Shown: positions 3,692 through 32,077 of the stretch, piece after piece | How the letters are laid out: each line of letters begins with the position of its first letter | Numbering within the stretch: the stretch's first letter is position 1 | Source: an uncultured Planctomycetales bacterium | Lineage (GTDB): Bacteria; Omnitrophota; Gorgyraeia; Zapsychrales; JANLHA01 | Direction: 5' to 3' | Assembly (NCBI GenBank): GCA_964489065.1 | Contig: CAZAXH010000008.1 | Location: 64,130-128,129 of the forward strand | Length of the DNA: 64,000 nucleotides | Notes under the pieces: generated by a model | Database searches by the model: none | Told to the model about the DNA's origin: nothing | The model's input: only the letters and a program-made list of their open reading frames with translations | Made by a program: the position numbers and the translations under genes

Positions 3692-3742
3692 CCCGGAAAG
3701 TTTCCCCCCGTCAAAAACTAAAATTATACGAAGGATAAAACG

Positions 3743-5157: not shown

Positions 5158-5162
5158 TTTTT

Positions 5163-6178: not shown

Positions 6179-6365
6179 AATATAAGTAGGCTGGGGCCCT
6201 TAGCCCGTTTATAGGATACCAATAAAGCAGTATCAAGGTTTGATGCTTTAATATATAATAAGTTAACATGATATATAACTATAAATTAATTCTATGTTAT
6301 ATTAATCAAATATTATGTGGACTATGTGCCCGGGATGATCCGGGAAAAAGACATAAAAACGGGGT

Positions 6366-8406: not shown

Positions 8407-9779
8407 CTTCACGGATTCTCCGAAAAACTCAAAGTGTCTGTCCCCGGTGTCTCGAGACCCTGGACACCTTTATCGTGGAAAAGAACGCAAAAATCGTTAT
8501 GAAAAAAACCTGCCCCCGGCATGGGCTGTTTGAAATCGTATTGTCTTCGACTCCGACTTACTACGCCGAACTCGAGGAGTATTATTTTTCCCTGGCGGAC
8601 ACTCGTTATGAAGTCCCGGAATATGAATTTTGGCCAACCTACCGGTGCAACGCTGACTGCACGATCTGCTGTTTCGGGCGGCAGAATTGGGAGATGGCGG
8701 GGCAGGACGCCTCGACGGGCGAAATTGAAAAACTGGCTAAAAACAGCAAGAAGCGTTTTTTTATTATTTCCGGGGGTGACCCGACCTGCCGGGATGACCT
8801 GGGTGATATTATAAGGACTTTTCGTAAACACGGGAAAGTCGTGACGATCAATACCAACGGCTTAAAATGCGCGGATTTAAACTACCTGAAGAAGTTGAAA
8901 AAGGCGGGCCTGGATCGACTGAATTTGCAATTTGACGGGTTTGACCCCAGATATTATCTGGCTCTGCGGCGTCAGGATTACCTGGACATCAAGCTGAAAG
9001 TTCTTGAAAACCTGCAGACTTTGGGGATTCAGACGACATTCAACGCGACCATCGCCCGGAATCTTAATGAAGGAGCGATCAAGGAATTAATGGATTTCGC
9101 CTCTTCGCACCCTTTTATCAACGGCGTTAATTTCTTTTCCATCTGTTTTCTGGGAGGGGCGAGGGACTGGGAACAAAGTTCATACATCATGCCGGATGAA
9201 ATCATTGACCTGCTCATCAGCCAAATAAGACCCGTTATTTCTAAAAAGAATGTTTTTGTTTTTCAAAAACTTCATCTGGCGGTCAAGTCGTTCCTGGCTC
9301 AGAAATGGTGCTTTTATAATCAGGTCTATCTTTTTGTCCGCAGAAACGGCTCTTTCGAGCCGATTGACCGCTTTCTCAACCTCGCTAAAGCCGAACCTTG
9401 GCTGGACCGTTACAGGGACAACTTCAAGACCAAGCCCTTCTGGGCGCGCGCCTGTCTGGGGATAGCCGTGGGGTGTCTCTTCCTGAAAAAAGAGTCCGTT
9501 ATTATTTTAAAGGAGATCCTTTTGAGGAGCGTGTCCTATTTTCTGAAGACGCGCCATTATCTTCGCGGCAGCCGGTTTTTCTCCGTGAGCTTTTCAACCG
9601 GCTGTGATCCTTATAAATTTGATTTTAACATTGTGAAACATTGCCAGAATGAAATCATCGCGGCCCGGGACCAGGACGGCGTGTTGACTCACTTAGGGAG
9701 CGACGGCCTGTATTGCATGGGGCTGGAGAAACGGTATTTGAGAAATAAACTCCAGAAAGAGGGGATGAGTTCTCGTTGA
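8403..9779 (+). CDS. Radical SAM protein with an N-terminal zinc-ribbon/rubredoxin-like knuckle (subtype A)
   Basis: The N-terminus is SVCPRCL-x19-CPRHG. The rSAM motif is YRCNADCTICCF, followed by SGGDPT. The conserved C-terminal Cys triad is WCFYNQ, CDPYKFD and HCQNEII, and there is a hydrophobic segment FWARACLGIAVGCLFL. Confidence 0.85.
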   Translation: MTSRILRKTQSVCPRCLETLDTFIVEKNAKIVMKKTCPRHGLFEIVLSSTPTYYAELEEYYFSLADTRYEVPEYEFWPTYRCNADCTICCFGRQNWEMAGQDASTGEIEKLAKNSKKRFFIISGGDPTCRDDLGDIIRTFRKHGKVVTINTNGLKCADLNYLKKLKKAGLDRLNLQFDGFDPRYYLALRRQDYLDIKLKVLENLQTLGIQTTFNATIARNLNEGAIKELMDFASSHPFINGVNFFSICFLGGARDWEQSSYIMPDEIIDLLISQIRPVISKKNVFVFQKLHLAVKSFLAQKWCFYNQVYLFVRRNGSFEPIDRFLNLAKAEPWLDRYRDNFKTKPFWARACLGIAVGCLFLKKESVIILKEILLRSVSYFLKTRHYLRGSRFFSVSFSTGCDPYKFDFNIVKHCQNEIIAARDQDGVLTHLGSDGLYCMGLEKRYLRNKLQKEGMSSR

Positions 9780-9780
9780 T

Positions 9781-11052
9781 ATGATGAAAGCCTACCCCCG
9801 ACATTCCGTTGACATTACCTGGCGCGATTACAAGCGCATGGTTTCGTTTTTCTTCACATCCCCGGCCCGGAGGAAAGAATTCCTTCCGGAATTCGAACAA
9901 CGCTTTGCGGAATATACCGGCACCCGCTTCGCCCTGTCCGTGCCGTCCGCCCGGGTGGGGCTTTATGCGATCCTGCAGTATTTTAATTTCCCTAAAGGGG
10001 CCGAAGTTATCATCACCCCGTTCACGCACCAGAGTATTTTTACGGTCCTGAAGACGTTCCGGCTTAAGCCGGTTTTCGTCGATATCGATGAAAAGACGCA
10101 CAATATCGACCCGCACCTGGTCAGGAAATCGGTTTCGGAGAAAACCCGTCTGCTGATTTTAACTCATATGTGGGGGCAGCCCTGCGACATGGCCGCGTTC
10201 ACCGCCTTGAAAAAAGAGTACGATCTGAAAATTATTGAAGATTGCGCCATGGCCGCCGGCGCGACTTACCAGGGGCGGAAAGTGGGGAGTTTCGTCGATG
10301 CCAGCATATTCAGCTTCGGGAAAGCTAAGGCCATTTGCGCTTTCGGCGGCGGGATGCTGTGCTGCCATGACGCCTCCATGAAGGATTTTATCTCCGGCCT
10401 GATCCGGGATTTTAAGCCCTCCCGGAGCCTGCCGCTGGCGGTTTCCGTCATTAATTCCGTGATCGCCAATATCCTGACCCGGCCCCGCTTTTTTTTCTTC
10501 TCCCTTTATCCGGTGATGCGGCTTTTCAACCTGCGGGATCCCTACAATCCGGTTGAACATAAAAAAGACTCCGAAGTCATCCTGGAGCAGATGCCGGAAG
10601 AATGGAAAGTCAAAATGTCGCCGTTTCAGGCCGCCCTGGGGCTGGAACAGCTCCGGAGCCTGGACGCCCGTAACCAGGCCCGGGCCCGTAACGCGCAGCT
10701 TTTGAACTTTTTGTTGGAGGGGACGCCGGGGATCAGTGTGCCCCGGCCGCAACCCGGAGGTAATCATATTTATCTTTACTACGCGGTTCATATACAGAAC
10801 GCCGCTTCTCTGGACGCCCTTAGGTTGAGCTTGCTGAAGCGTTCGGTCGACACGCAATTAAATGAGTTGACGACTCCCCGGCAGCTGCGTGTTTTCGGGG
10901 CGGACAGCCGGACGGTCCCTGTTTTTGAAACCATATCCGCGAATATCCTTGTCATCCCCAACGGGATTTATTTAAATGACCGGGATATCCGGCTTGTGGC
11001 GGAGGCGTTAAAACAGAGCCTGAGGTCCCTTCCGGGGAAGGGGGATGCATGA
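9781..11052 (+). CDS. DegT-like PLP aminotransferase-fold protein (long subtype with a hydrophobic insert)
   Basis: It has a DegT-like layout (ALSVPSARVGLYAIL, IEDCAMAAGATYQGRKVG, FSFGKAKAICAFGGG). A hydrophobic insertion (LPLAVSVINSVIANILTRPRFFFFSLYPVMRLF) follows the lysine motif. Confidence 0.75.
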   Translation: MMKAYPRHSVDITWRDYKRMVSFFFTSPARRKEFLPEFEQRFAEYTGTRFALSVPSARVGLYAILQYFNFPKGAEVIITPFTHQSIFTVLKTFRLKPVFVDIDEKTHNIDPHLVRKSVSEKTRLLILTHMWGQPCDMAAFTALKKEYDLKIIEDCAMAAGATYQGRKVGSFVDASIFSFGKAKAICAFGGGMLCCHDASMKDFISGLIRDFKPSRSLPLAVSVINSVIANILTRPRFFFFSLYPVMRLFNLRDPYNPVEHKKDSEVILEQMPEEWKVKMSPFQAALGLEQLRSLDARNQARARNAQLLNFLLEGTPGISVPRPQPGGNHIYLYYAVHIQNAASLDALRLSLLKRSVDTQLNELTTPRQLRVFGADSRTVPVFETISANILVIPNGIYLNDRDIRLVAEALKQSLRSLPGKGDA

Positions 11053-12431
11053 AAACGGCCCGGCCATCCCGCTCGATATTACGGACAACGGAAAGCGTCT
11101 GCCCGAAATGTTCCGCGCCCCTGCCCGCCAGTATTGTCGCGGATGAAAAAGGCGTGTTTATGGAGAAACGCTGCCCGCAGCATGGAGATTTTCGCGTGCG
11201 CCTGTCCGAAACCCCGGCCTTGTACGCCGAACTGGACGGGTTTTACTGTTCCCTGATGGGGCGGGCGCAACCTTGTTTTGATTATGAAATCTGGCCCACC
11301 CTGCGGTGCAATATGAATTGCGCGATATGTTTTTTCGGCTGTCCGCGGGAATCTTCCCGGGTTTTTGAGCCGACGCTCAACGCCATCGAACAGTTCGTCA
11401 GCCGGGACCCGCACCCGTTTTACTGCCTCTCCGGAGCGGAAGCGACTGTCCGGGATGATTTGCCGGATATCATCCGTATTTTAAAAAAGCACCGGAAAGT
11501 CGTGACGTTGAACACTAACGGAATGCGTTTCGAGGATGAATCTTATCTGTTAAAACTGAAGAACGCCGGGCTGGACCGGGTTATTTTGCAATGCGATGGT
11601 TTTGATCCCCGTGTTTCCCTGAAGATGAGGGGAGAGGATGCTGTCCCCCAACGGCAGCGTGTCTTGGCCCTCTTGGAAAAGCATCATATGCCGACCGCGC
11701 TCAGTTCCACGATCGCCCGGGGCCTCAACGAACATACGGTTTCGGAATTGCTGGATTACGCGCTGGCGCATCCTTTCATCAACGGGATCGCGTTTCTGTC
11801 CATCGCCTTTGACGGCGGGGCCCGGAACTGGAGCCAGGAGCGCTACATGATGCCGGATGAAGTGATCGACGTTGTCTGCCGTGTCCCCGGCTATAACGTA
11901 AAAAAAGAAAACGTGCACAGATTTCAAAAGCTGCATTTCGCCGTCAAGGCGTTCTTGAAGCAGCGCGCGTGTTTATATAATCAGCTTTATGTCCTGGTGC
12001 GCCGGCGGGGTTCCTTTGAGCCTATTGACGCTTTCATGAATCTCGCTAAAGCCGAGCCCTGGCTGGACCGTTACCGGCACGCTTACGCGGGGAAGAAACA
12101 CGGCCTGGCCGCTCTTTATCTGGGGCTGGCTTTGCTATGCCTGTGCTGCCATCGCCGGATTTTAGTCCTGTTCCGGGACCTTCTCGGCTCGGGGGTGTCT
12201 TATTTCTTCCGGACGTCACGATATCTAAGAACAGGCCGACTGCTTGCTTTAAGTTTTACGACCAGCTGCGACCCGTATAAGCTCGACAAGACAATCCTCC
12301 AGAATTGTCAGAATGAAATTATGGCCGCGGATCAAACACCGGACTCTTTACGCCCTATCGGAAGGGAAGGCGCCTATTTCGTGAACCTGGAAAAACATTA
12401 CGCTGAATCTCAACCCCGGGGGGAACCATGA
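11049..12431 (+). CDS. Radical SAM protein with an N-terminal zinc-ribbon knuckle (subtype A)
   Basis: It has SVCPKCS-x19-CPQHG, LRCNMNCAICFF, KAEPWLDRYR, CDPYKLD and NCQNEIM, plus the hydrophobic segment LAALYLGLALLCLCC. ATGA overlaps occur at both ends. Confidence 0.85.
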   Translation: MKTARPSRSILRTTESVCPKCSAPLPASIVADEKGVFMEKRCPQHGDFRVRLSETPALYAELDGFYCSLMGRAQPCFDYEIWPTLRCNMNCAICFFGCPRESSRVFEPTLNAIEQFVSRDPHPFYCLSGAEATVRDDLPDIIRILKKHRKVVTLNTNGMRFEDESYLLKLKNAGLDRVILQCDGFDPRVSLKMRGEDAVPQRQRVLALLEKHHMPTALSSTIARGLNEHTVSELLDYALAHPFINGIAFLSIAFDGGARNWSQERYMMPDEVIDVVCRVPGYNVKKENVHRFQKLHFAVKAFLKQRACLYNQLYVLVRRRGSFEPIDAFMNLAKAEPWLDRYRHAYAGKKHGLAALYLGLALLCLCCHRRILVLFRDLLGSGVSYFFRTSRYLRTGRLLALSFTTSCDPYKLDKTILQNCQNEIMAADQTPDSLRPIGREGAYFVNLEKHYAESQPRGEP

Positions 12432-15184
12432 AACCTGACACGATCATTCGCGCGACGCAAAGCGTTTGCCCTGTATGCCTGGAAGCCGTGCCCGCGACGG
12501 TGCTTGAGAAAGACGGCCGGGTTTACCTGACTAAGACCTGCCCCCGGCACGGGGCCTCCGAAGTCCTTCTGTCTGAGACCGCGGGTCTTTACAAAGAACT
12601 GGAAGGCTTTTTTTCCGCCGTTATGAACCCGTCTTACCGCATCCGCGAATATGAAATCTGGGTGACAATGCGCTGCAACACGTCTTGCACCATCTGTCAT
12701 CTCGGAGACAGCAACAGGATCGACATCCCGGACCCGAGCCTGGAAAAAATCGAGGAGTTTATCCTCCGGCATGACCAGCCGGCTTATATCCTTTCTGGGG
12801 GAGAGCCCACCTGCCGGGAAGACCTGCCGGATATTGTCCGCCTTTTTAAAAAGCACGGCAAGCATATCAGCCTGCACACGAACGGTCTGGCTTTAGGGAA
12901 CAAAGATTACATCCGTTCCCTGCAGGAAGCGGGGTTGGACCGGATCAATCTTCAATTTGACGGGTTCGCGCCGGACGCGTATAAAATTTTCCGGGGGAAA
13001 AATATCCTGGATAAGAAGCAACTGGCTTTAAAAAACCTGGAAGACCTGCGTCTGCCGACGGATTTGAATATCACGGTTGCCCGGGGTGTCAATGAGCCGG
13101 CCGTCATGGACAGCGTCCGGTTTGCCGTTAAACATCCTTTCATCTCTTCCGTTAACTTCTTCACGATCTGCTACCTGGGAGAAACGGCCCGATGGCCTTT
13201 AAAATATTTCCTTATGCCGGATACGATCGGAGACATCCTGGAAAAAGAAACAGGCGGCCGGATTTCCAAGCGCGGCATCATCCTTTTTCAGAAACTGCAC
13301 CTGGCCGTTAAATCCCTGCGTTCGGAGCGTTATTGCCTTTACAGCCAGATTTTTGTCCTGTTCCGAAAACGGGACGGGACGTATGACCCCATTGACCGCT
13401 ATCTTAACCTGGAACGGACGGACAGGCTTCTGAAACTTTATCAAAAAATGGCTCCCGGGCATCCTGTCCTCGCCAAAATAATTTTAATTTTAGGCCTGCC
13501 GTTTTTTATGATGCGCTGGTCCACGCTGGTGATCCTGAAAGAAATCTTGCGGACCGGATTTTCTTTTATGATCAACGAGGATTACGCTTTAAAAACCAGC
13601 CCGTTCCTTTATTTGAATTTTAATACGAGCTGTGATCCTTATAAAATCGATTACGGGTTCGTGCAGGATTGTCAGGATGAAATCATTTTTTATGACCGTC
13701 AGCAGGAACACTTGGTGAACCAGGGAGTGGACGGATTGCGCGCCATCGAGTTCGAGCGCCGCTACCGTAAGGCCGCCCCCAAGGAGACGATTCGCATTGA
13801 TCGGAAAATGGAAACATCCCAGAGGCATAAGCCTGCCGGCTTGGGCAACCGTGTCATTCGGGAGACAATGAGCGTGTGTCCTGTTTGCCTGGCCCCGCTC
13901 CCGGCCAGGATCCGGGCCGGAGCGGATGGCGTTTATCTGGAAAAGACATGCCCCCGGCACGGGGCCTTTCGCGTTTTTGTTTCGACTCATCCGGATGATT
14001 ATCAGGCCCTGTCCGACACTTATTTTTATTTTATCCCCGGGGCTCTGGAACAACGGGAATATTACGTCTGCGCGAGCACGCGGTGCAACATTTCGTGCCC
14101 GATTTGTTACCTGAATTATTGCCCTGAGCGGCCTCCTCTGACGCCCGAGGATATGAACAGCGCCGTGGGGGATAAACCGCAGGTGGAGCGCTTCACGTTT
14201 TCCCACGGCGAGCCCACGGTCTCTCCGCAACTGCCGGAGATGATCCGGGCTTTAAAGAAAGCCGGGAAATTTGTCAACATTCATACGAACGGCGTGAAAC
14301 TTGCCGATTATGCTTATACTCAATCCCTGAAACAGGCGGGGCTGGATCACGTGAGCCTCCAGTTTGACGGTTTTCGTGATGAAATTTATGAGACCCTGAG
14401 AGGCGGGAAGCTCTTGGAGGCCAAAACGCGCGCTTTGGATAATCTTAAGGCGCTGGAAATCCCCGTGACATTAAACGTGACGATCGCCGGGGGCGTTAAT
14501 GAAGACGAGTGGGGCAAAGTTTTTGATTACGTTGTCCGGAATGATTTTATTAAAGACGTGAGTTATATCACTTACTGCCATTACTCCCCTCAGGGGGATG
14601 CCGAGGGCCGGTCCATGATGCCGGACGACCTGGTGATACGCCTCGTGGAGCATTCTCAAGGGACGATTGAGAGGGAGGATGTGGTCTGTTTTCAGAAATT
14701 GTTTTACGCCTATTTAAGCGCCTTCCGCAAGAAAAAATGCTTTAACTATTATCATTATTGCGTTGTGCGGACATCCGGCGGATACCGTGGGATTGAGCGT
14801 TATCTGGATGTGCGGAAGATCGCCGGGAAGATTGACGCGTGCCGGGAGAGAGGACAAACGATGACGAAAACGTTGTTGCTGAAAATATTGTTAACCTCTC
14901 TGCGATGGGATAGTGTGGCGTTGATTCCTTACGGATTATTTTTGCTGTCGCGCGGGGGGTATCCCCCAAGCCCCGGGAAACTTTTAGTCGTGACGTTGGC
15001 CAGTATCTGCGACCCGTATAAATATGACGCAACGGTCGCCTTAAATTGCGGGCAGGGCATTATTACTCAAACCATGCAACATGAGAGTTACGGGACATAT
15101 ATTATCGAGGAGATGAAGCGTTCGCCGCGTCCCGACGCAGCTCGTGTCCTGCCTGACGCGTTTCCTCAAGGGGGTTCGGTATAA
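12428..15184 (+). CDS. Tandem fusion of two zinc-ribbon radical SAM modules (subtype A followed by subtype B), 918 aa
   Basis: Module 1 has SVCPVCL..CPRHG, MRCNTSCTICHL, CDPYKIDYGFVQDCQDEII. A linker (RYRKAAPKETIRIDRKMETSQRHKPAGLGNRVIRET) follows. Module 2 has SVCPVCL..CPRHG, TRCNISCPICYL, ICDPYKYDATVALNCGQGII. The reading frame is continuous in the supplied sequence. Confidence 0.85.
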   Translation: MKPDTIIRATQSVCPVCLEAVPATVLEKDGRVYLTKTCPRHGASEVLLSETAGLYKELEGFFSAVMNPSYRIREYEIWVTMRCNTSCTICHLGDSNRIDIPDPSLEKIEEFILRHDQPAYILSGGEPTCREDLPDIVRLFKKHGKHISLHTNGLALGNKDYIRSLQEAGLDRINLQFDGFAPDAYKIFRGKNILDKKQLALKNLEDLRLPTDLNITVARGVNEPAVMDSVRFAVKHPFISSVNFFTICYLGETARWPLKYFLMPDTIGDILEKETGGRISKRGIILFQKLHLAVKSLRSERYCLYSQIFVLFRKRDGTYDPIDRYLNLERTDRLLKLYQKMAPGHPVLAKIILILGLPFFMMRWSTLVILKEILRTGFSFMINEDYALKTSPFLYLNFNTSCDPYKIDYGFVQDCQDEIIFYDRQQEHLVNQGVDGLRAIEFERRYRKAAPKETIRIDRKMETSQRHKPAGLGNRVIRETMSVCPVCLAPLPARIRAGADGVYLEKTCPRHGAFRVFVSTHPDDYQALSDTYFYFIPGALEQREYYVCASTRCNISCPICYLNYCPERPPLTPEDMNSAVGDKPQVERFTFSHGEPTVSPQLPEMIRALKKAGKFVNIHTNGVKLADYAYTQSLKQAGLDHVSLQFDGFRDEIYETLRGGKLLEAKTRALDNLKALEIPVTLNVTIAGGVNEDEWGKVFDYVVRNDFIKDVSYITYCHYSPQGDAEGRSMMPDDLVIRLVEHSQGTIEREDVVCFQKLFYAYLSAFRKKKCFNYYHYCVVRTSGGYRGIERYLDVRKIAGKIDACRERGQTMTKTLLLKILLTSLRWDSVALIPYGLFLLSRGGYPPSPGKLLVVTLASICDPYKYDATVALNCGQGIITQTMQHESYGTYIIEEMKRSPRPDAARVLPDAFPQGGSV

Positions 15185-15188
15185 AATT

Positions 15189-16751
15189 ATGAAGATCGCC
15201 TTTATTAATGATTCCTGTGAACGGCTGGGTGTTGAATATATTTCAGCCGTGCTTAAACAGCATGGGCACACCGTCAAATTGTTCGCCGATCCGCAGCTCT
15301 TTGATGACGAAAATTTTACAATCGCGCCTCTGGCCAGGTTTTTTGACCGGCAGGAAGACCTGCTGGCCCAAATTCAGGCGTTCCAGCCGGATCTGATCGG
15401 GTTCTCGGTCGTGACGGACTTTTATCAGTGGGCCTGCCGCCTCGCCAGGCGTATCAAAGCGGTGATGGATGTCCCGGTGCTTTTCGGAGGGATTCACGCG
15501 ACATCGGTTCCCGAAAAGGTCCTGCAGCAGGATTGCGTGGATATGGTCTGCCGGGGGGAAGGGGAGTTCGCCCTTTTGGACCTCGCCGACAGCATGGAGA
15601 AGGGCCTCCGGGATTACACGATCCCCAACATTTGGTTTAAAAAAGACGGTGCGATCATCAGGAATGATGCGCGTCCCCTGATCGAGGACCTGGATGCGCT
15701 GCCGTTCGCGGATAAAGACCTTTTTTATGAGGCCAGCCCCCATTTTTCCCGTTGCTATTTCCTGATGACCAACCGCGGCTGCGCTTACGCCTGCAGTTAT
15801 TGCTGTAATTCATTCCTGAAAAAATTTTATCATGCGAAAGGCCGGTACCTGCGTTTCCGCAGCGCCGGAAACGTGATCCGGGAGTTGACCCTGGCCAAAC
15901 AGAAATACGGCATTAAAATGGTCCGTATCCACGATGATGACTTCCTCACGCACGACGTGCCCTGGTTCGAGGAGTTCGCGGAAGAATACTCCCGGCATAT
16001 ACAGGCCCCGTTCGCATGCTTCACGCACCCCAACAGCGTGACGGAAACCAAAGCCCGCCTGCTGAAGAAAGCAGGGTGCCACGATATCGAAGTGGGGGTC
16101 CAGTCCATCTCCTCGGACACGCGTTACCGGATTCTTAACCGCCGCGTTTCGGATGAGCAATTGGTCCGCGCTCTGCAGATATTAAAAGACGCGGGCATCA
16201 AGGTGATCACGGATAATATCCTGGGGCTTCCTCACCAGGGGCGGGAGGAGCTTCTGGATCTCATTAAATTTTATAATAAAAACAGGATCATGAAGATTTA
16301 CTGTTTCGGCTTCCGGCATTATCCGGCCACGGATATCGTCGAATATTCCAGGGACGAGAAACTGCTGAGCGCACAGGATGTCGAGAACCTGGAGAACGGG
16401 ATCAATGTCAAGACCTTCATTCAGAGCGGGGATAATTTGAGCCGTGAGGACCGGCAACTGCAGACATTTTTTGCGTTTCTGCTCTACCTGCCGGAGACGG
16501 TCAATAATTACATCCTTGAGAAAAAGCTGTACCGTTATTTTATCCCGCTCCCGTATTATGTCCTGGTTATCTTTTCCAATTGGCTGCGCATCCCGTACCG
16601 GTACAACTGGGCGCTGCATATTACCGTGTGCCGGTACCGGGTTTATGCTTATAAAACGATAAAGAAAAAGTTTACCTCGGGTATCAGGGCGTTGCTTAAA
16701 AAGTTCCGCCCTTCGGCCTTTAACACGGCGCGGGGGACGCCTGTCCGGTGA
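15189..16751 (+). CDS. B12-binding (class B) radical SAM enzyme, array paralog 1
   Basis: The ATG at 15189 gives MKIAFINDSCERLGVEYISAVLKQHGH, matching the paralog N-termini. The track ORF starting at 15144 overlaps the upstream gene. It has GGIHATSVPE and CRGEGE (B12-binding domain) and NRGCAYACSYC (CxxxCxxC). Confidence 0.9.
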   Translation: MKIAFINDSCERLGVEYISAVLKQHGHTVKLFADPQLFDDENFTIAPLARFFDRQEDLLAQIQAFQPDLIGFSVVTDFYQWACRLARRIKAVMDVPVLFGGIHATSVPEKVLQQDCVDMVCRGEGEFALLDLADSMEKGLRDYTIPNIWFKKDGAIIRNDARPLIEDLDALPFADKDLFYEASPHFSRCYFLMTNRGCAYACSYCCNSFLKKFYHAKGRYLRFRSAGNVIRELTLAKQKYGIKMVRIHDDDFLTHDVPWFEEFAEEYSRHIQAPFACFTHPNSVTETKARLLKKAGCHDIEVGVQSISSDTRYRILNRRVSDEQLVRALQILKDAGIKVITDNILGLPHQGREELLDLIKFYNKNRIMKIYCFGFRHYPATDIVEYSRDEKLLSAQDVENLENGINVKTFIQSGDNLSREDRQLQTFFAFLLYLPETVNNYILEKKLYRYFIPLPYYVLVIFSNWLRIPYRYNWALHITVCRYRVYAYKTIKKKFTSGIRALLKKFRPSAFNTARGTPVR

Positions 16752-16761
16752 AACAAGATAA

Positions 16762-18114
16762 ATGTCTATGAAAACTTATTTCATAAGCGCGTCGACATTC
16801 TGCATGGAACGGATGCTGGACTGCCAGCAGGTTTCCGATTATCTCAAGTTGAACGGCTGGCGTCCGGTGACGCGGGTTCGGCAGGCCGGGCTGGTCATCA
16901 TAAGCACCTGCTCGTTCGGGCGCGAAGAGGACGCGAGCTCCCTGGATTATATCCGTTATTTTCTGCGGAAGAAATCGCCCCGGGCCCGTTTCCTGATTAT
17001 GGGGTGCCTTCCGGTGATCAACCCCGACTTATTATCTTCTTATCAGGATATTCCCGTGCTCACACCGACCACTTTATCCCGGATCGAAACCGTGGCCCCT
17101 CCGGAGAGGACCCGGTTCGCGGATGTCCCGGAACCCAATAAAATTTTGGCGACAGAAGTCACGCACAGTGTTTTTCTGAAAAAAGCGTTAAGTTTCCGTT
17201 CCGCGTTCAGGCAGGGCCTCCGGTGTTTTAAGCCTGATGTAGCGACGTTGCGGCGGGGGCTGTCCTTCCTGAAAGCCGCGGTGCGTTATGTCCCGGTTAT
17301 GAAGGCGCACATTAACCCGTTCTTATCCTGTAACCGGAACGGATTTTATTATTTGAGATTATCCAAGGGCTGCCTGGGGAACTGCAGTTACTGCGCTAAA
17401 AGACATTCGACAGGGACCTTGCAGAGCAAATCCACAACCTCTATCCTCGATGAATTCCGCGCCGGGCTCAGGGCCGGGGAAAAGCAGTTTTATTTATTGA
17501 CGGAAGACGTCGGCTGTTACGGGGCCGACCGGCACACAGATATCGTAGCCTTGTTGAAAAATCTTTTTGAAGCCGGGGAGAGGCATGATTTCCGGATTGT
17601 CCTGTCCAATTTCAATGCCCGGTGGTTCGTGCGGTATTATGAGGACCTGGAGCCGGTCTTGATCCGGAATCAGAACAAAATTTTGTATCTGCAAATACCG
17701 ATCCAGTCAGGCAGCACCCGCATCCTGGAATTCATGAACCGGCATTACACCATTGAAGACGTGGAATCCCGGCTCCTGACTTTAAGAAAGAACGCCCCGG
17801 CGGTCGCCTTCACGACCGATATCATCGCCGGATTCCCGGGGGAAACGGATGAGGATTTTGAACTCACCAAGAAGTTTTTGTCGAAAATACGTTTTCAGCA
17901 CGTTGATATTTTCGCTTACGAAAAACGCCCCGGCACTAAAGCGGGAACGCTTCCCGGGGACGTCCCCCCGGAGATCATCGAAGCCCGTGTCCTGCAGTTG
18001 GCCCGGCTTCAGAACAGCTATCACCGGGGCCCCATGCTTGCTAAAAAAGTGCTGGATGTTATCCGGGAAAACCTGCAGCGCTACCGGAATAAAGCCGTGA
18101 CCCGTACGCCATGA
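16762..18114 (+). CDS. MiaB/RimO-like methylthiotransferase-type radical SAM enzyme lacking a TRAM domain
   Basis: The N-terminal UPF0004-like domain has three spaced Cys (STFCMERMLDC.., IISTCSF, IMGCLP). The rSAM motif is SKGCLGNCSYCAKRH, and GFPGETDEDF is present. The C-terminus ends without a recognisable TRAM barrel. Confidence 0.75.
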   Translation: MSMKTYFISASTFCMERMLDCQQVSDYLKLNGWRPVTRVRQAGLVIISTCSFGREEDASSLDYIRYFLRKKSPRARFLIMGCLPVINPDLLSSYQDIPVLTPTTLSRIETVAPPERTRFADVPEPNKILATEVTHSVFLKKALSFRSAFRQGLRCFKPDVATLRRGLSFLKAAVRYVPVMKAHINPFLSCNRNGFYYLRLSKGCLGNCSYCAKRHSTGTLQSKSTTSILDEFRAGLRAGEKQFYLLTEDVGCYGADRHTDIVALLKNLFEAGERHDFRIVLSNFNARWFVRYYEDLEPVLIRNQNKILYLQIPIQSGSTRILEFMNRHYTIEDVESRLLTLRKNAPAVAFTTDIIAGFPGETDEDFELTKKFLSKIRFQHVDIFAYEKRPGTKAGTLPGDVPPEIIEARVLQLARLQNSYHRGPMLAKKVLDVIRENLQRYRNKAVTRTP

Positions 18115-19625
18115 CAAAACAAGGCCTGAGAATTGCTTTTGTGAATGATTCCTGCGAGCATTTGGGGGTTGAATATATCTCCGCCGTGCTGAAATCCGCA
18201 GGGCATGATACCCGTCTATTCGTTGACCCGCTTTTGTTTGATGATGAATTTATCACCGTTAAGGGGCTCAGCCGCCGCTTTGATTACACTAAGAAGATTA
18301 TCCGGGACCTCAGGGCTTATCAGCCGGATCTGGTCAGCCTGTCGGTGGTCTCAAGCTTCTATCCCTGGGCCGGCCGGATGGCCCGGGCTATAAAGGCGGA
18401 GATGGACGTCCCCGTTATCATGGGCGGTATTCATCCGACATCCGTTCCCGAAAGTGTCATCCAGAACGACGCCGTGGATATGGTCTGCCTGGGGGAAGGG
18501 GAATACCCCCTGCTGGAACTTGCCGACAGTATGGCCCGGGGAAGTATCGACGACACCGTAAAAAACATCTGGTTTAAAAAGAACGGGAAGATCCTGCGCA
18601 ACCCTTTGCGGCCGCTTATCGACGATTTAGATGCCCTCCCGTTTCCCGATAAAGACCTTTATTATTCCGTCAGCCCGCATTTTTCAAAAAGTTATTATAT
18701 CGCGACCAGCAGAGGCTGCCCCAACGCCTGCAGTTATTGCTGTAATTCTTACCTGCATTCTTTGTACAAGGGCCTGGGCGCGCCGCGGCGGTCGCGCAGC
18801 GTCCGGAATGTCATTGAAGAATTAATGTGGGCCCAAAACCGTTACCGGATCGATCCGGTTTTCTTCCTGGATGACTGTTTCGGGACCGATTTGGGATGGT
18901 TAAAAAAATTCGCGACGGAGTACCGAGAAAAAGTCGGCGTTAAGTTTTACTGCATGATGTTCCCCGCACCCCAGATGGAAGAGGCGGTTGAATATCTCGC
19001 GCAGGCCGGCTGCGGGGAAATCGAGATCGGCGTCCAGTCCTGGGATGAAGATGTCAGGCGCCGGATATTCAACCGGCGCGTTTCGAACGACACGATGATC
19101 CGGACGATGAAATTGATCAGGAAGGCGGGGATCAATCTCGTGACAGGCGATATCCTCGGTTATCCCGGGCAGAAAGAGGAGCATATTTTAAAAACCGCGG
19201 AGATTTACACAGACATAAAACCCAGCCGGACGTACGCTTTTATCCTGAAATATTTTCCCAAAACGGAGATCACGGAACAGGCGCTGCAGAACGGATGTCT
19301 GAGTCCGGCGGATCACGAAAAAATATTGGACGGCCATTACGGCAAATACTTATCGAAAGACGGCTCCATGACAGAGAGGGATGTCATGCAATATCTGCTT
19401 CTATTTTTGCTGGTGCGTATTTTACCGGTCTCTTGGGCCAAGACAGTAATCCGGAAAAAATTTTATAAGCGTTTCCCGGTTTTGTTCACGCCGGCCGTGA
19501 TTTCAATCCTGAATAATTTTTCGACATCCACCTTTGAATCGCAGGTCAACCGGAAAAGCGCCCTGGCACGGTACACTTTTTTCATTAAACGATTGTTTTC
19601 TAAATCCAAAGCAGGTGCGCGATGA
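18111..19625 (+). CDS. B12-binding (class B) radical SAM enzyme, array paralog 2
   Basis: It has LRIAFVNDSCEHLGVEYISAVLKSAGH, GGIHPTSVPE, CLGEGE and SRGCPNACSYC. The ATGA overlap with the upstream gene is at 18111/18114. Confidence 0.9.
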   Translation: MTKQGLRIAFVNDSCEHLGVEYISAVLKSAGHDTRLFVDPLLFDDEFITVKGLSRRFDYTKKIIRDLRAYQPDLVSLSVVSSFYPWAGRMARAIKAEMDVPVIMGGIHPTSVPESVIQNDAVDMVCLGEGEYPLLELADSMARGSIDDTVKNIWFKKNGKILRNPLRPLIDDLDALPFPDKDLYYSVSPHFSKSYYIATSRGCPNACSYCCNSYLHSLYKGLGAPRRSRSVRNVIEELMWAQNRYRIDPVFFLDDCFGTDLGWLKKFATEYREKVGVKFYCMMFPAPQMEEAVEYLAQAGCGEIEIGVQSWDEDVRRRIFNRRVSNDTMIRTMKLIRKAGINLVTGDILGYPGQKEEHILKTAEIYTDIKPSRTYAFILKYFPKTEITEQALQNGCLSPADHEKILDGHYGKYLSKDGSMTERDVMQYLLLFLLVRILPVSWAKTVIRKKFYKRFPVLFTPAVISILNNFSTSTFESQVNRKSALARYTFFIKRLFSKSKAGAR

Positions 19626-21136
19626 AAATCGCTTTTGTCAACGATTCATCCCAGCAGCTGGGTATACAATATATTTCGGCCGTCCTTAAACAGCACGGCC
19701 ATGACGTGAAGCTGTTCATGGACCCCCAGTTATTCGATGACGATGTGATCCGGGTCCCCCGATTGAGCCGGTGGCTTGATTCCAAGAAAGAGCTTGTCCG
19801 GCGTCTGAAAGCCTATCAGCCCGACTTGGTCGGGATCTCCGTGGTGACGGATTTTTACCAGTGGGCCCGCCGGATCGCCACGATGATCAAGGAAGAAATG
19901 GATGTCCCGATTATCGCCGGCGGAATCCACCCGACATCCGTTCCCGAGAGAGTGCTGAAAAACGATTGTTTTGACATGGTGTGTCTGGGAGAAGGGGAGT
20001 TTGCTTTGTCGGAACTGGCCGACAATATGCAGAAGGGAACGCCTGACTACACGATCCGTAATATCTGGTTCAAACGGGACGGCCAAATCATAAAAAATGA
20101 ACTCCGGCCGCTTATCGATGACCTGGACGACCTGCCCTTTCCGGATACGGACTTGTATTATTCCGCCAGTCCTCATTTTAAAAGGACCGGCCTGTACGTT
20201 ACCATGACTTCTCGCGGCTGTCCGAACGCCTGCACGTACTGCTGTTTTTCTTACCTGCAGGGGCTTTACAAAGGGAAAGGGAAAAGGATCCGGCAGCGCA
20301 GCGTCGGCAATGTCATGAGTGAATTGCGGACCAACAAGGAAAAATACAACATCAAGTTCGTCGCGTTTATGGACAATTGTTTCGGGTATGATTCGAAATG
20401 GTTGCGGGAATTTGCGCCCGTTTATCAGGCGGAGATCGGGATTAAATTCTGGTGCATCATGCATCCCAAGGATGTCACGGAAGAAACCCTGAAGCATTTG
20501 AAGCGGGCCGGGTGCCACACGATTGACATGGGGGTGCAGTCGTGGAACGAGCGCATCCGCAAGGAGGTCCTGCACCGGGATGTCGGGAATGACACGATGG
20601 CCCGCGCGATCCTCCTGGTCAAGAATGCGGGGATCGAAATCATGACCGACAGCATTTTCGACCTTCCCGGGCAAACGGAAGACGACATCCTGGAAAGTGC
20701 CCGCCGTTATGCGGAAATCCGGCCCAAGCGGATATATTTTTACATGCTCCGGCATTACCCCAACACCCTGATTACCCGGATGGCGAAGGAGGATAATCTT
20801 CTGACCTCATCCCGGTATGAAGAAGTGATGGACGGGGTGAACGTCACGTCTTTCACCATCGGAGGCGACAAGGTCAATAAAGACATGATCCGGTTTCAGA
20901 TCCTGTTTTATCTGATCGATTTGATCCCCAAACGGATGAGCTTGTTTATCATCCGCAGGAGACTGCACCGGTATTTCCCTCTCATGTTCGGCCCCGCCAT
21001 GATCGTGATCCTGCGTAATTTGCTGGCCTTTGACATGAACGCCCGGCTTCAGCGCGCCTGGGCCTTTAACCGTTACGCGCATTTTATCTGGGAGAAAATC
21101 CGTCCCGTCCGAAAATGCCGGGGACATCAGCCATGA
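19622..21136 (+). CDS. B12-binding (class B) radical SAM enzyme, array paralog 3
   Basis: It has MKIAFVNDSSQQLGIQYISAVLKQHGH, GGIHPTSVPE, CLGEGE and SRGCPNACTYC. The ATGA overlap is at 19622/19625. Confidence 0.9.
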   Translation: MKIAFVNDSSQQLGIQYISAVLKQHGHDVKLFMDPQLFDDDVIRVPRLSRWLDSKKELVRRLKAYQPDLVGISVVTDFYQWARRIATMIKEEMDVPIIAGGIHPTSVPERVLKNDCFDMVCLGEGEFALSELADNMQKGTPDYTIRNIWFKRDGQIIKNELRPLIDDLDDLPFPDTDLYYSASPHFKRTGLYVTMTSRGCPNACTYCCFSYLQGLYKGKGKRIRQRSVGNVMSELRTNKEKYNIKFVAFMDNCFGYDSKWLREFAPVYQAEIGIKFWCIMHPKDVTEETLKHLKRAGCHTIDMGVQSWNERIRKEVLHRDVGNDTMARAILLVKNAGIEIMTDSIFDLPGQTEDDILESARRYAEIRPKRIYFYMLRHYPNTLITRMAKEDNLLTSSRYEEVMDGVNVTSFTIGGDKVNKDMIRFQILFYLIDLIPKRMSLFIIRRRLHRYFPLMFGPAMIVILRNLLAFDMNARLQRAWAFNRYAHFIWEKIRPVRKCRGHQP

Positions 21137-22653
21137 AGATCGCGTTTGTCAATGATTGCGTCGAGAGGCTGGGGGTTGAATATATTTCGGCGCTCCTGAA
21201 GGGGCAGGGGCATCAGGTGAAACTTTTTGTCGATCCCCAGCTTTTTAATAACGTGTATGTGCAGATCAACCGCCTGAGCCGGTATTTTGATTACACGGAA
21301 AGAATTATTCGCGGTCTCATGGAATATCAGCCGGACCTGATCGGATTCTCCGTGGACACGGAATCCTATCAATGGGCTTCCCGTCTGGCGCGGCGCATTA
21401 AGGAGCGCATGGAAACTCCCATTATTTTCGGCGGGATCCATCCGACATCCGTGCCGGAGCGGGTTATTTTAAATGAAGCCGTGGATATCCTTTGCGTCGG
21501 GGAGGGGGAACACCCCATGCTGGAACTGGTCAACAGCATGGCCCGGGGCGGCGTGGACACGGCAATAAAGAATTTGTGGTTTAAAACGAACGGCAGGATT
21601 ATCACAAATCCCTTAAGGCCTCTTTTGGCCGACCTGGACAGACTCCCGGTCGCCGATCACGGCCTTTTTTATGACACTTACCCCTATTTCCGCAAAGGGT
21701 ACAGCACGATCGCTTCGCGCGGCTGCCCTTACGCCTGCAGCTACTGCGGGCACGCGTATCTGCGGCAATTGTATCAAAACAACGGGGCCTATTTCCGTCA
21801 CCGCAGTGTCGAAAATCTGCTGGATGAATTAGCGCTGCGCCTGACGCAGTATAAAATCGATATCATCACTTTCTTTGACGACAATTTCGGTTTTGAACCG
21901 GAGTGGCTGGAGAAATTTTCCGTCCGGTACGCCAGGGATATCAGAAGACCGTTTACCGTGACCGCCCGCCCGGAAATGATTTCCCGTGATTATGTCCGCC
22001 TCTTGAAACAGGCCGGATGCTGCTCCGTGACCCTGGGCGTTCAAACCTGGGATGATGCCGTTCGAAAAGAGTGGTTTAACCGGGATGTGAACCCGGAGGT
22101 GATGCTGAAGGCCATGCGGCTCGTCAAGGAAGCGGGCCTGGAATTGATCTGTGATAACATATTCGGGGTTCCCGTTGAAAACGATGAGGGGTATATGCGG
22201 GCGTTGCTGCCCTATGCCGATATTAAACCCGACCGGATCCTGTTTAATCAGCTGAAATATTTCCCGCGCGTGCCGATCACGGAAAAGGCCCGTGAAGGAA
22301 ATTTCATATCGGAGCAGCGGTATGACGCCATTATGGACGGCCGGGACCAGAAAGGAATTTTCCTGGGGCCGTCTGCCGCGAGCCGTGGGGACCGTAGACA
22401 GCTGATCCGGAAAAAACTTTTTTTATATTCATTGGATTGGTTGCCAAAAACATGGGCGCGGTTTATTATTAATAAGCGTCTTTACCGTTATTTCCCGACT
22501 TTCATTAACCCGGCGGTTCTTCCGGTTTTGCGGACGTTTTTTTCGTCCGACACGGACACGCGATATTTTAAACGCCGGACTTTATCACGCTACTGGTATC
22601 ATTTGACCCCACGCCTGCGGGGTCGGAGGAGACACGATGAGCCCACAAACTGA
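21133..22653 (+). CDS. B12-binding (class B) radical SAM enzyme, array paralog 4
   Basis: The ATG at 21133 (ATGA overlap with the stop at 21136) gives MKIAFVNDCVERLGVEYISALLKGQGH. It has GGIHPTSVPE, CVGEGE and SRGCPYACSYC. The track start at 21115 is probably too early. Confidence 0.9.
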   Translation: MKIAFVNDCVERLGVEYISALLKGQGHQVKLFVDPQLFNNVYVQINRLSRYFDYTERIIRGLMEYQPDLIGFSVDTESYQWASRLARRIKERMETPIIFGGIHPTSVPERVILNEAVDILCVGEGEHPMLELVNSMARGGVDTAIKNLWFKTNGRIITNPLRPLLADLDRLPVADHGLFYDTYPYFRKGYSTIASRGCPYACSYCGHAYLRQLYQNNGAYFRHRSVENLLDELALRLTQYKIDIITFFDDNFGFEPEWLEKFSVRYARDIRRPFTVTARPEMISRDYVRLLKQAGCCSVTLGVQTWDDAVRKEWFNRDVNPEVMLKAMRLVKEAGLELICDNIFGVPVENDEGYMRALLPYADIKPDRILFNQLKYFPRVPITEKAREGNFISEQRYDAIMDGRDQKGIFLGPSAASRGDRRQLIRKKLFLYSLDWLPKTWARFIINKRLYRYFPTFINPAVLPVLRTFFSSDTDTRYFKRRTLSRYWYHLTPRLRGRRRHDEPTN

Positions 22654-23980
22654 AACCCTTGTCCGCGAAACCACCAGCCTTTGCCCGGTGTGCCAAAAGC
22701 AGATTAAGGCGGCCGTTGTGGAGTCCGGGGACGGGATTTTTCTTTCCAAAAACTGCGATGTGCACGGGCCGTTTAAACTCAGGGTTTCGCGCCACGCTTG
22801 GTATTATAAAAACCTGACGGAGTATTATTTCCGCGTCATGCCGGCTGATATGCCCCAGAAACGTTTTTATATTTATTTAAGCAACCGCTGCAACCTTGAT
22901 TGCCCGATTTGCCTGCTGGAACCGAACCAGGATAAAGCGGCCGATGTCTCCCTGGACCAGTTTAAAAAGCTGATCCGCGATAACTCCGGTTTCCGTTATT
23001 ACCTTTACGGCGCGGAACCGACCCTGCGCGATGATCTCCCGGAATGGATCGCCCTTCTGAAAAAACACGGCAACCTGGTTAATATTCACACCAACGGCAT
23101 TAAACTTGATGATATCGCCTATCTCCGGTTCTTAAGAGACGCCGGGCTTGATTATGTGAGCCTGCAGTTTGACGGCTTCGACGATCAGGTCTATCTGGCG
23201 CTCCGGAACCGCACATTGCTGGATTCGAAGCTGAAAGCCCTGGAGAATCTTGAAAAGCTGGATATTCCGACGGGGCTCAATGTCACTATCGCCAAGGGCC
23301 TGAATGAGAAGGAAATAAACCCTATTATAGACTACGCTGTCGGTAAACCCTTTATCCGGGACGTGAGTTTCGCTTCGGTGTCTTTCCTGGGGAACGCGGA
23401 AAGGAATTTTTCTTCCGCGGACCTGCTGATGCCGGATGACGTGGTGGACCTGGTTGAAAACGCCACAAAAGGCAAAGTGAACCGCCGCAGTCTCTTCTTA
23501 TTTCAGAAATTGTATTATGCCGTGTTGTCTATTTTTAACATCCGCCGGTGCTATAATTTTCATCAGCTCGCTTTGGTCCGGGACGGACGGGGGGGATACC
23601 GATCCTTTGACGCGATCTATGACCTGGCGGGGTTTGAAAAAAAGATGGACCGGTTCAGCCATCTGGCGCCCCGGAATAAAACCCTGGCGGCGGGATATTT
23701 CTTCCTGCAGTTTATCATGAACATGCTGTCGGGCGACGTGAAGGAAAAGGTCCAGATCCTGCCGCTCAACATGCTCCTGCCGGGGCAGAAACGGAACGTG
23801 AAAATCCCGTCCAAGATCCTGCTCGTCAGCTTCGGGACGGTCTGCGATAAATATAAATACGATGCGGGGATTTCCCGGTACTGCGGGCAGGGGTTTGTTT
23901 TCAACCGGGATGGAAGCCTGGCGCTATCGGATTCCGTTTCGGACATGACGCTTTTAAAAAAGGGTGAGGCCTGCGGTTGA
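22637..23980 (+). CDS. Radical SAM protein with an N-terminal zinc-ribbon knuckle (subtype B)
   Basis: It has SLCPVCQ-x19-CDVHG, NRCNLDCPICLL, FQKLYYAVLSIFNIRRCYNF, VCDKYKYDAGISRYCGQGFV. Its closest relative in the window is the C-terminal module of 12428..15184. Confidence 0.85.
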   Translation: MSPQTETLVRETTSLCPVCQKQIKAAVVESGDGIFLSKNCDVHGPFKLRVSRHAWYYKNLTEYYFRVMPADMPQKRFYIYLSNRCNLDCPICLLEPNQDKAADVSLDQFKKLIRDNSGFRYYLYGAEPTLRDDLPEWIALLKKHGNLVNIHTNGIKLDDIAYLRFLRDAGLDYVSLQFDGFDDQVYLALRNRTLLDSKLKALENLEKLDIPTGLNVTIAKGLNEKEINPIIDYAVGKPFIRDVSFASVSFLGNAERNFSSADLLMPDDVVDLVENATKGKVNRRSLFLFQKLYYAVLSIFNIRRCYNFHQLALVRDGRGGYRSFDAIYDLAGFEKKMDRFSHLAPRNKTLAAGYFFLQFIMNMLSGDVKEKVQILPLNMLLPGQKRNVKIPSKILLVSFGTVCDKYKYDAGISRYCGQGFVFNRDGSLALSDSVSDMTLLKKGEACG

Positions 23981-24013
23981 ACCAGGGGGATGAAGGTCGG
24001 CAAGGATAAGGTT

Positions 24014-25540
24014 ATGAAAATCGCGTTTATCAATGAAGCGGATCAGCATATAGGCCTTCAGTACCTCACGGCGGTGCTGAAGGAGAACGGGCATGAGGTG
24101 AGGACATTTTCCGATCCGCGTTTATTCGATGACCTCTACATCACGATCCGGAGGCTCAACCGGATTTTTGATTTCCAGGACGACATCCTTAAGGACATCG
24201 CCGAATTTAATCCGGGATTGATCGGGTTTTCAGTATCCAGCCCGATCTATCGATGGGCCTGCGCTTTGGCCGCCAAGATAAAAGAACGCAGGGATATCCC
24301 CATTATTTTCGGCGGAGTTCACGCCACGGCCGTGCCGGAACGCGTGATTCGGAAAAGTTTCATAGATATGGTTTGTGTCGGGGAAGGGGAGTTCCCTATG
24401 CTGGAACTGGCCAACAGCATGGACCGCGGGCAGCCGGATTATTCCATTAAAAATATATGGTTTAAAACCCCACAGGGAGAAATTATCCGGAACGATATCC
24501 GTCCCCTACTTGATGACCTGGACGTTCTGCCTTTCCCGGATCAGGACCTGTTTTATTCCAGCAGTTCCTGTGACACCCGAAGCTACGTAACCATGATCTC
24601 CCGGGGCTGCCCGCACGGCTGCAGTTACTGCACCATGTCTTATCTGCACGATCTTTACCACGGGAAAGGGAAACGGATCCGGCTGCGCAGCGTCCGAAGC
24701 ATTATCGCCGAAATCACCGGGGTCCTGCAGAAGCACAAAGATATCAAAAGGGTCATGTTCCCGGACAACTGCTTCGGGACGGATATCGCCTGGCTGCGGG
24801 AATTCTCCCGTGAGTATTCGCAGAAAGTCGCCAGAGATTTTTTTTGCGTGATGCATCCCGCATCCGTCACTGAAGAATCCGTCGCGTGTCTCAAGGAGGC
24901 GGGATGCCGGTCCATCTCCCTGGGAATTCAGGCCTGGGACGCCCCGCTGCGTTACACCATGCTTAACCGCAAAGTTTCCAATGAGGTCATGGAAAACGCC
25001 CTGCGGCTTATCCTGGAGGCCAGGATTGAGCTCTTAATCGATAACCTGTTTGATTTTCCGGGGTACAGCATGGAGCATTATATTGAATCCCTGGAAGTTT
25101 ACACGCGGTATAAGCCGACGCGGAATTATTTTTATAAGCTGCATTTTTATCCGCACACCCAAATGAGCCAGATTGCCGTTCAGAATCGCTGGATCACGGC
25201 CGCGGAATACGAAGATTGCTTGGAAGGAGGGGACACCCTGGGGATTCTGCGTTATGATGCGTCACACGACGGCAATCGGACCCGGCAGCAGGACCGTGAA
25301 TCGAGACAGGGGCAAATTTTGTTTGTTTTGATGGACCTGATCCCCGCCCGCTGGACCCGGGCCATCATTCAAAAGAAATGGTACCGGTATTTTCCGTCTT
25401 TTCTGAACCCGGCTTTACTAACGATGCTCCGGACCCTGCTGGCCAACGATTTTGAATCACGTTACTTTAAGGACATAACATTCTGGCGGTATCGCCATTT
25501 TATGATGAAAAAATTGAAAGCATATTTTAAAAGAAAATGA
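24014..25540 (+). CDS. B12-binding (class B) radical SAM enzyme, array paralog 5
   Basis: The ATG at 24014 is preceded by AAGGA with a 7-nt spacer and gives MKIAFINEADQHIGLQYLTAVLKENGH. It has GGVHATAVPE, CVGEGE and SRGCPHGCSYC. The track start at 23990 is possible but less consistent with the paralogs. Confidence 0.88.
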   Translation: MKIAFINEADQHIGLQYLTAVLKENGHEVRTFSDPRLFDDLYITIRRLNRIFDFQDDILKDIAEFNPGLIGFSVSSPIYRWACALAAKIKERRDIPIIFGGVHATAVPERVIRKSFIDMVCVGEGEFPMLELANSMDRGQPDYSIKNIWFKTPQGEIIRNDIRPLLDDLDVLPFPDQDLFYSSSSCDTRSYVTMISRGCPHGCSYCTMSYLHDLYHGKGKRIRLRSVRSIIAEITGVLQKHKDIKRVMFPDNCFGTDIAWLREFSREYSQKVARDFFCVMHPASVTEESVACLKEAGCRSISLGIQAWDAPLRYTMLNRKVSNEVMENALRLILEARIELLIDNLFDFPGYSMEHYIESLEVYTRYKPTRNYFYKLHFYPHTQMSQIAVQNRWITAAEYEDCLEGGDTLGILRYDASHDGNRTRQQDRESRQGQILFVLMDLIPARWTRAIIQKKWYRYFPSFLNPALLTMLRTLLANDFESRYFKDITFWRYRHFMMKKLKAYFKRK

Positions 25541-27012: not shown

Positions 27013-27029
27013 CCGCGGAAAGGATTAAC

Positions 27030-28640: not shown

Positions 28641-28680
28641 ACTCTGTTTTGTGCCTTTGTTAAGAGAGGAAAAAGGTTTT

Positions 28681-30291: not shown

Positions 30292-30304
30292 CACAAAAAC
30301 TCAT

Positions 30305-32076: not shown

Positions 32077-32077
32077 A

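Follow-up and report, generated by a model that had tools for sequence, protein, structure and literature searches.

Four clades of methylthiotransferases are recognised, all of which bear a TRAM domain and have tRNA or ribosomal protein S12 as their target (PMC2952846; PMC10702137). All methylthiotransferases are said to share a tripartite structure that includes TRAM (PMC2952846; bioRxiv 10.1101/717249), and RimO is stated to be the only one known with a non-tRNA target (PMC10702137). The window analysed here, a stretch of 64,000 nucleotides of contig CAZAXH010000008.1 from an uncultured bacterium of the Omnitrophota lineage, encodes a methylthiotransferase-like radical S-adenosylmethionine (SAM) protein in which TRAM is missing. 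This protein, referred to as the window protein and encoded by the sole methylthiotransferase-like gene within the 64-kb window, belongs to a distinct, widespread, previously uncharacterised TRAM-less clade of the methylthiotransferase superfamily, as which it behaves by each sequence and structure criterion applied; its gene, however, does not belong under the names MiaB, RimO, MtaB or e-MtaB. A description of a TRAM-less methylthiotransferase clade or of this gene cluster was not found in the literature. The gene and its parts are listed below in window coordinates (aa, amino acids; ORF, open reading frame; HMM, hidden Markov model), with the basis of each assignment in brackets.

16762..18114, forward strand: TRAM-less methylthiotransferase-like radical SAM gene, 450 aa (ORF and translation, Pfam, NCBIfam, AlphaFold2)
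16801..17037, forward strand: core of the N-terminal UPF0004 (methylthiotransferase) domain, aa 14–92, with C14, C50 and C82 (Pfam, conservation)
17170..17310, forward strand: family-specific helical insertion, aa 137–183, between the N-terminal domain and the radical SAM core (AlphaFold2)
17359..17880, forward strand: radical SAM core, aa 200–373 (Pfam, alignments to RimO 4jc0 and MiaB 7mjz, conservation table)
17968..18111, forward strand: short helical C-terminus, aa 403–450, replacing the TRAM beta-barrel (AlphaFold2, tail length, TRAM HMM)
18111..18114, forward strand: ATGA, shared by the stop codon and by the start of the B12-binding radical SAM gene that lies downstream at 18111-19625 (sequence, Pfam)

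Using Pfam, UPF0004 (PF00919) was matched at aa 14–92 with 37.9 bits (cutoff 27) and Radical_SAM (PF04055) at aa 200–373 with 62.6 bits. A first-pass annotation, made from the nucleotide letters and their translations, had described an N-terminal domain with three cysteines followed by a GCLGNCSYC radical SAM core, and both were borne out by Pfam and by the alignment positions. The N-terminal cysteines are C14 (STFC), C50 (STCSF) and C82 (MGCLP) in the numbering of alignment A1 and align with the auxiliary-cluster ligands of RimO and MiaB; among 178 family members they are conserved to 93%, 99% and 100%, respectively, as in canonical enzymes. The radical SAM motif C204-LGN-C208-SY-C211 (C204-x3-C208-x2-C211) was invariant in the same set, and all six cluster cysteines were 93–100% conserved across the family. 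The core motifs PxQSGS (313–318), MxR (325–327), GFPGE (357–361) and Y..R..T are common to the family and to canonical methylthiotransferases. Family-specific residues N285, W288 and Y292 (N-x2-W-x3-Y) were located in the radical SAM core, W288 being present in 88% of the family and facing a gap at that column in canonical enzymes. Cys252, in a 'GCYG' motif and invariant in the close subfamily, was considered as a family-specific catalytic residue and dropped, being present in only 44% family-wide. A reading of the N-terminal domain as a degenerate B12-binding domain was also rejected: the domain is UPF0004 with three cysteines, PF02310 (B12-binding) was not matched in the window protein by Pfam, and NCBIfam B12 families reached at most 60 bits on it; the flanking genes do carry PF02310.

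The absence of a C-terminal TRAM domain, already noted in the first-pass annotation, was confirmed by Pfam, by a dedicated HMM, by alignment length and by the helical C-terminus of an AlphaFold2 model. No Pfam match to TRAM was obtained in the window protein even at E ≤ 1, and the alignment to T. maritima RimO (4jc0) stops at query residue 419, which corresponds to RimO residue 360, with about 30 aa remaining. The TRAM HMM was built from 138 canonical C-termini and had a sensitivity of 155 out of 159 canonical methylthiotransferases; it matched none of 180 family members and, when run against all six-frame ORFs of at least 35 aa of the window, nothing was matched (best E = 1.4). The tail past residue 415 has a median length of 13 aa in the family versus 74 aa in canonical enzymes. 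The AlphaFold2 model of the window protein was calculated from a 41-sequence alignment (predicted local distance difference test score, pLDDT, 90.3; predicted template modelling score, pTM, 0.88), and its C-terminus consists of helices 403–420 and 426–446 with no beta-barrel, in agreement with Foldseek. Because this confident model ends in helices and the TRAM HMM was negative, the objection that a cryptic TRAM fold might be hidden at the C-terminus falls. The possibility that TRAM had been split off or shifted out of frame into the downstream region was discarded too: the next ORF begins within the stop codon, and its product has a B12-binding domain at the front.

A linker of unusual length, about 100 aa, had been described as separating the N-terminal domain from the radical SAM core. 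The long segment is real, but its true excess over canonical enzymes amounts to about 50 aa, part of it being what the N-terminal domain ordinarily has as its second half. Segment 95–195 measures 100 aa in the window protein, and its medians for the family and for canonical enzymes are 86 aa and 48 aa. In the model the insertion is folded into helices 137–154, 160–175 and 177–183 (pLDDT 76–88); it is missing or short in the family sequences P0034, P0036 and P0038-44. The clade has lost the substrate-binding TRAM domain and gained this helical insertion and the N-x2-W-x3-Y motif.

On the general MiaB/RimO model of NCBIfam (TIGR00089) the window protein scored 212.4 bits (E = 1e-62) and missed the curated cutoff of 251, and its scores on the equivalog models (cutoffs in brackets) were 172 for MtaB (357), 168 for RimO (357), 160 for e-MtaB (315) and 155 for MiaB (355). 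Ten canonical control enzymes reached 336–528 bits on the NCBIfam methylthiotransferase models. Sequence matches were obtained to RimO 4jc0 (E = 8e-35) and MiaB 7mjz; in sequence as in structure, all of the nearest relatives are genuine methylthiotransferases, by a wide margin, and the radical SAM fold is matched.

A first homology search returned about 44 TRAM-less clusters of 33–85% identity and 390–450 aa, the named members of which come from metagenome-assembled genomes (MAGs) of Candidatus Omnitrophota/Omnitrophica; canonical enzymes appeared only under 29% full-length identity. When 1.84 billion representatives were searched with a profile, scores above 350 bits were reached by at least 150 clusters (50% identity level). 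Bar a few multi-domain fusions, their members are of about 370–440 aa and end just past the radical SAM domain. On the family profile, members score at least 350 bits versus 190–250 bits for canonical methylthiotransferases; with profile A2, which has a mean column identity of 32%, the score gap extends from 375 to 314 bits. A search of a word-indexed database with profile A2 gave no further named members, and the family members are all metagenomic. Genome contigs were also scanned with the patterns T[DH][IM][IM][VA]GFPG and GC[LM]GxC[SN]YCA (from alignment A1), which match canonical methylthiotransferases too; almost all of the 80 matches listed were ordinary MiaB, MtaB or e-MtaB, and the only TRAM-less relative among them was L007, from a Thermodesulfobacteriota MAG (CAZFWM010000012.1), with 288 bits on the family HMM.

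For phylogenetic placement against MiaB, RimO, MtaB and e-MtaB, as the first-pass annotation had advised, a neighbour-joining tree of 242 sequences and 378 columns was calculated, which is distance-based and includes RimO as a single partial sequence. The 165 family sequences and three other TRAM-less proteins formed one split in 99 of 100 bootstraps, placing the window protein outside all four clades. This split is separate from MiaB, MtaB, e-MtaB and the partial RimO, and e-MtaB and RimO are the nearest canonical sequences to it.

The individual canonical enzymes differ from the window protein in several respects. RimO (S12 Asp-88/89 beta-methylthiotransferase, PDB 4jc0) has a TRAM domain adapted to S12 and no interdomain insertion, and it falls in a different clade, the window protein reaching 168 bits against the RimO equivalog cutoff of 357. 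MiaB (tRNA i6A37, PDB 7mjv-7mjz) binds RNA via TRAM, carries an N-terminal 'GCQMN' motif and likewise belongs to a different clade. The e-MtaB/CDKAL1-type and MtaB enzymes (tRNA t6A37; TIGR01578, TIGR01579) are the nearest canonical sequences, and the top TRAM-bearing matches, P0045 and P0046, are e-MtaB; compared with the window protein they show at most 29% full-length identity and have TRAM and a tRNA target. The family and an archaeal e-MtaB (Candidatus Brockarchaeota, L010 1587-2972) have the radical SAM motif in the same variant form, 'GCLGxCxYCA', and the clade may be derived from an e-MtaB-like ancestor. Radical SAM enzymes with a B12-binding domain and small-molecule substrates, such as the aminoglycoside diol dehydratase AprD4 (6fd2) and MgmA/QCMT (9ccb), are a further point of comparison: their N-terminal domain binds cobalamin or nothing and holds no three-Cys [4Fe-4S] cluster, and the similarity of the window protein to 9ccb was marginal (E = 1.6e-7).

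The ORF at 16762..18114 starts with ATG, with an alternative start possible at ATG 16768. The public gene call P0001 (436 aa; NCBI and Logan), which is the same protein, starts at Met15 and so lacks Cys14, and the gene calls P0003 and P0008 are shortened likewise at the N-terminus (window counterpart region 16762-16804). The longer ORF was favoured over the Met15 start because the N-terminal strand is conserved and C14 is present in 93% of the relatives. Translational coupling to the downstream paralog, proposed in the first-pass annotation, is in accordance with the sequence, in which the TGA stop at 18112-18114 overlaps the ATG of the next gene at 18111-18113 ('...gccATGAcaaaa'). The gene upstream ends at 16751, 10 nucleotides ahead of the 16762 start. 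The position of the gene within a class-B array was recovered as well, the genes on both sides being B12-binding radical SAM genes.

This array is part of a larger operon, which is followed by a further gene:

6366..32773, forward strand: tightly packed operon of about 26 kb holding the gene (ORF list, Pfam, NCBIfam)
32915-34765: YfhO, next after the operon (Pfam)

Its genes code for two DegT aminotransferases and one radical SAM/SPASM protein, for four radical SAM proteins of the Zn-ribbon (HMPTM) type, one of them a fused double, and for seven B12-binding radical SAM paralogs; LPG_synthase_TM, GT2 and WbqC come next. The same gene order was found around the orthologue in the relatives L001, P0024 and L005, the identities being 65%, 46% and 45%. 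Across the family, 13 neighbourhoods were examined; glycan genes (DegT aminotransferases, glycosyltransferases, sugar epimerases or dehydratases) were present in 11 and B12-radical-SAM neighbours in 9 of them. Among the clusters of distant members, one holds NTP_transferase, DegT, dTDP-sugar isomerase, epimerases/dehydratases and Wzx; another GT4, two DegT, a pyruvyl transferase and a second TRAM-less paralog; others hold UDP-GlcNAc 2-epimerase (Epimerase_2) with GT2 and PMT_2, UDP-glucose dehydrogenase with GT4, tandem paralogs with DegT, GT2 and PMT_2, or B12-radical-SAM genes with an epimerase, PMT_2, GT2 and YfhO. Two fusions were found: P0211 (L088 429-4166; 1245 aa) joins a domain like MurB_C, a UDP-sugar-binding enzyme, to two methylthiotransferase-like units, and P0136 (L087 10001-12586; 861 aa) joins a B12-binding radical SAM unit to a methylthiotransferase-like unit, with a stand-alone paralog next to it. 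Two TRAM-less paralogs per cluster are present in L002 (10001-11203 and 15117-16436, the second copy being divergent with 298 bits on the family HMM) and in L091 (4703-5956 and 5993-7246), which suggests either that sulfur is inserted twice or that the copies share the work.

Thirteen proteins named from Omnitrophica/Omnitrophota MAGs were ordinary MtaB-type enzymes with a TRAM-like C-terminus (TRAM-HMM E = 1e-10 to 1e-16), scoring 170–212 bits on the family HMM versus 640 bits for the window protein.

The analysis establishes the architecture and fold, the retention of the six ligands and of the core motifs, the separateness of the clade and its conserved genomic context; on this footing a substrate and a chemistry can be proposed. 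The window protein would be a functional two-cluster radical SAM enzyme dedicated to the tailoring of an (amino)sugar or glycolipid intermediate of the surrounding operon, which it would methylthiolate in the manner of MiaB and RimO; judged from sequence and predicted structure, this reading is held with moderate confidence. The substrate is probably formed along the glycan or glycolipid pathway of the cluster, because the branch is found almost always beside sugar- and envelope-building genes, and is very probably not tRNA or S12, given these glycan contexts and the separate TRAM-bearing MtaB enzymes of Omnitrophota MAGs. The suggestion of the first-pass annotation that the target is likelier to be the cluster's product than tRNA or S12 is strongly supported by the conserved synteny and the family-wide glycan association. 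As to the chemistry, we infer, reasonably in view of the conserved residues, that methylthiolation is the most parsimonious. The predicted substrate would be an (amino)sugar carried on a nucleotide or on polyprenyl phosphate, or the glycolipid made from it. A first SAM would methylate a sulfide bound to the iron that is left free in the N-terminal [4Fe-4S] cluster (C14, C50, C82). The 5'-deoxyadenosyl radical would arise when the radical SAM cluster (C204, C208, C211) cleaves a second SAM; it would take a hydrogen from an unactivated carbon of the substrate, and the resulting carbon radical would capture –SCH3. More tentatively, and with somewhat less than even confidence, the family may be a fifth, TRAM-less methylthiotransferase clade, and the first with a small molecule or a glycoconjugate as its substrate; it would place SCH3 (or a thiol) onto an unactivated carbon of a heavily C-alkylated envelope aminosugar or glycolipid in Omnitrophota and many other uncultivated anaerobes.

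Several points weigh against a methylthiolating sugar-tailoring enzyme. We know of no product, and of no methylthio-sugar linked to such clusters, and other radical SAM enzymes use auxiliary three-Cys clusters for chemistry that does not involve sulfur. The window protein lies under the curated cutoff of every NCBIfam methylthiotransferase model. No sulfur-mobilising gene was detected in the window, flanks included, using Pfam and NCBIfam, and the window's cluster is without a nucleotidyltransferase or a 4,6-dehydratase, which leaves the substrate carrier ambiguous. Since 2 of the 13 contexts, the isolated L089 and L007, are without glycan genes, the common denominator may be the radical SAM array, possibly acting on a lipid, and not a sugar. 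In L007 the array (664-17364) combines five B12-binding radical SAM genes with a further radical SAM gene of the HMPTM type and with two proteins of the Peptidase_U32 family; no sugar genes were found among the ten ORFs scanned, and the radical SAM array may be the family's true constant partner.

The same fold could serve dedicated tailoring with no sulfur transfer at all, the N-terminal cluster functioning in substrate binding or electron transfer while a sugar or lipid intermediate undergoes dehydrogenation, epimerisation, dehydration/deamination, C–C bond formation or C-methylation. This is considered unlikely, though it carries more weight than the other alternatives: the three auxiliary cysteines and the shared methylthiotransferase motifs are kept across a very divergent family (the 32% mean identity of profile A2), as is expected if the whole two-step chemistry is retained, and the closest relatives in sequence and structure are all genuine methylthiotransferases. 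An insertion of sulfur without methylation, as performed by LipA or BioB, would yield a thio-sugar or a thiol for later use in a thioether or disulfide. The sulfur-donor architecture would be identical, tandem paralogs in several members could divide the labour, and separate class-I methyltransferases occur in some clusters and at the window edges. In characterised methylthiotransferases, the methyl group is transferred to the auxiliary-cluster sulfide via the same SAM site; nothing specific to this step has been lost in the window protein and nothing favours thiolation over methylthiolation. Thiolation alone is regarded as improbable.

A housekeeping methylthiotransferase for tRNA or a ribosomal protein that has shed TRAM, recognising its substrate otherwise or via a partner and lying in the operon incidentally, would share its fold and chemistry with the tRNA and S12 enzymes, and some JGI auto-annotations name family members MiaB or CDKAL1. 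Anton et al. placed the discrimination between the N6 substituents i6A and t6A outside TRAM (PMC2952846), which would fit such an enzyme. Co-occurrence with canonical methylthiotransferases was seen at the level of the phylum, which leaves some room for a housekeeping role in this genome and counts among the points against dedicated tailoring. A housekeeping role is nevertheless regarded as very improbable, because Omnitrophota MAGs separately encode an ordinary TRAM-bearing MtaB. It is also opposed by the array position, kept down to 45% identity, by the glycan contexts in unrelated lineages, by the tandem paralogs and the fusions to B12-radical-SAM or MurB_C units, by the separate clade at 99/100 bootstraps and by the lack of a TRAM ORF in the window.

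If methylthiolation of an envelope (amino)sugar or glycolipid is correct, methylthiotransferase chemistry would be extended to small-molecule or glycoconjugate substrates, and an undescribed class of sulfur-containing envelope glycans or lipids would be implied. The family would then be a defined candidate with which enzymologists could study how sulfur is inserted into sugars or lipids, and it would flag an envelope component, unknown so far and heavily tailored by radical SAM enzymes, in Omnitrophota and other uncultivated bacteria. Inventories of tRNA modification in metagenomes could be inflated, because family members are auto-annotated as 'MiaB', 'CDKAL1' or plain 'radical SAM protein'.

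Regarding the remainder of the window, a second block at 36259-50962 contains further radical SAM genes, DegT, PMT_2 and an asparagine synthase (AsnB), and the window flanks are housekeeping genes. About 19 radical SAM domains were counted across 6366-34765 and 36259-50962, which makes the region exceptionally rich in them. Eight B12-binding class-B paralogs start at 15144, 18111, 19622, 21115, 23990, 25537, 27030 and 39370, four Zn_ribbon_HMPTM radical SAM genes at 8403, 11049, 12428 and 22637, and further radical SAM genes at 7414 (with SPASM), 43609, 36259 (reverse strand), 42134 and 47599. Over both blocks, three DegT aminotransferases stand beside GT2, WbqC, YfhO, PMT_2, LPG_synthase_TM and AsnB. 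The ORF at 12428-15184 (forward strand, 918 aa) is a head-to-tail fusion of two Zn_ribbon_HMPTM plus radical SAM units according to Pfam, and the single-unit paralog at 8403 had its best NCBIfam scores with TrsS (153 bits) and the tetraether lipid synthase Tes (144 bits), far under cutoff; this hints at C–C bond or lipid chemistry, or at class-D-like methylation. Large ORFs of 498–560 aa without a Pfam or NCBIfam family were found within the cluster or adjoining it, at 28609-30291, 34766-36262 (reverse strand), 46007-47602 and 1173-2843, the one at 28609-30291 giving only a marginal lactonase/beta-propeller match. Just upstream of the cluster, an Mrp/NUBPL-type Fe–S cluster carrier ATPase and an ARMT1-like (DUF89) protein are encoded at 2864-3691 and 3743-4609; in L089, too, an ARMT1-like gene (16125-17015) is situated 5 kb away from the family member, possibly by coincidence.

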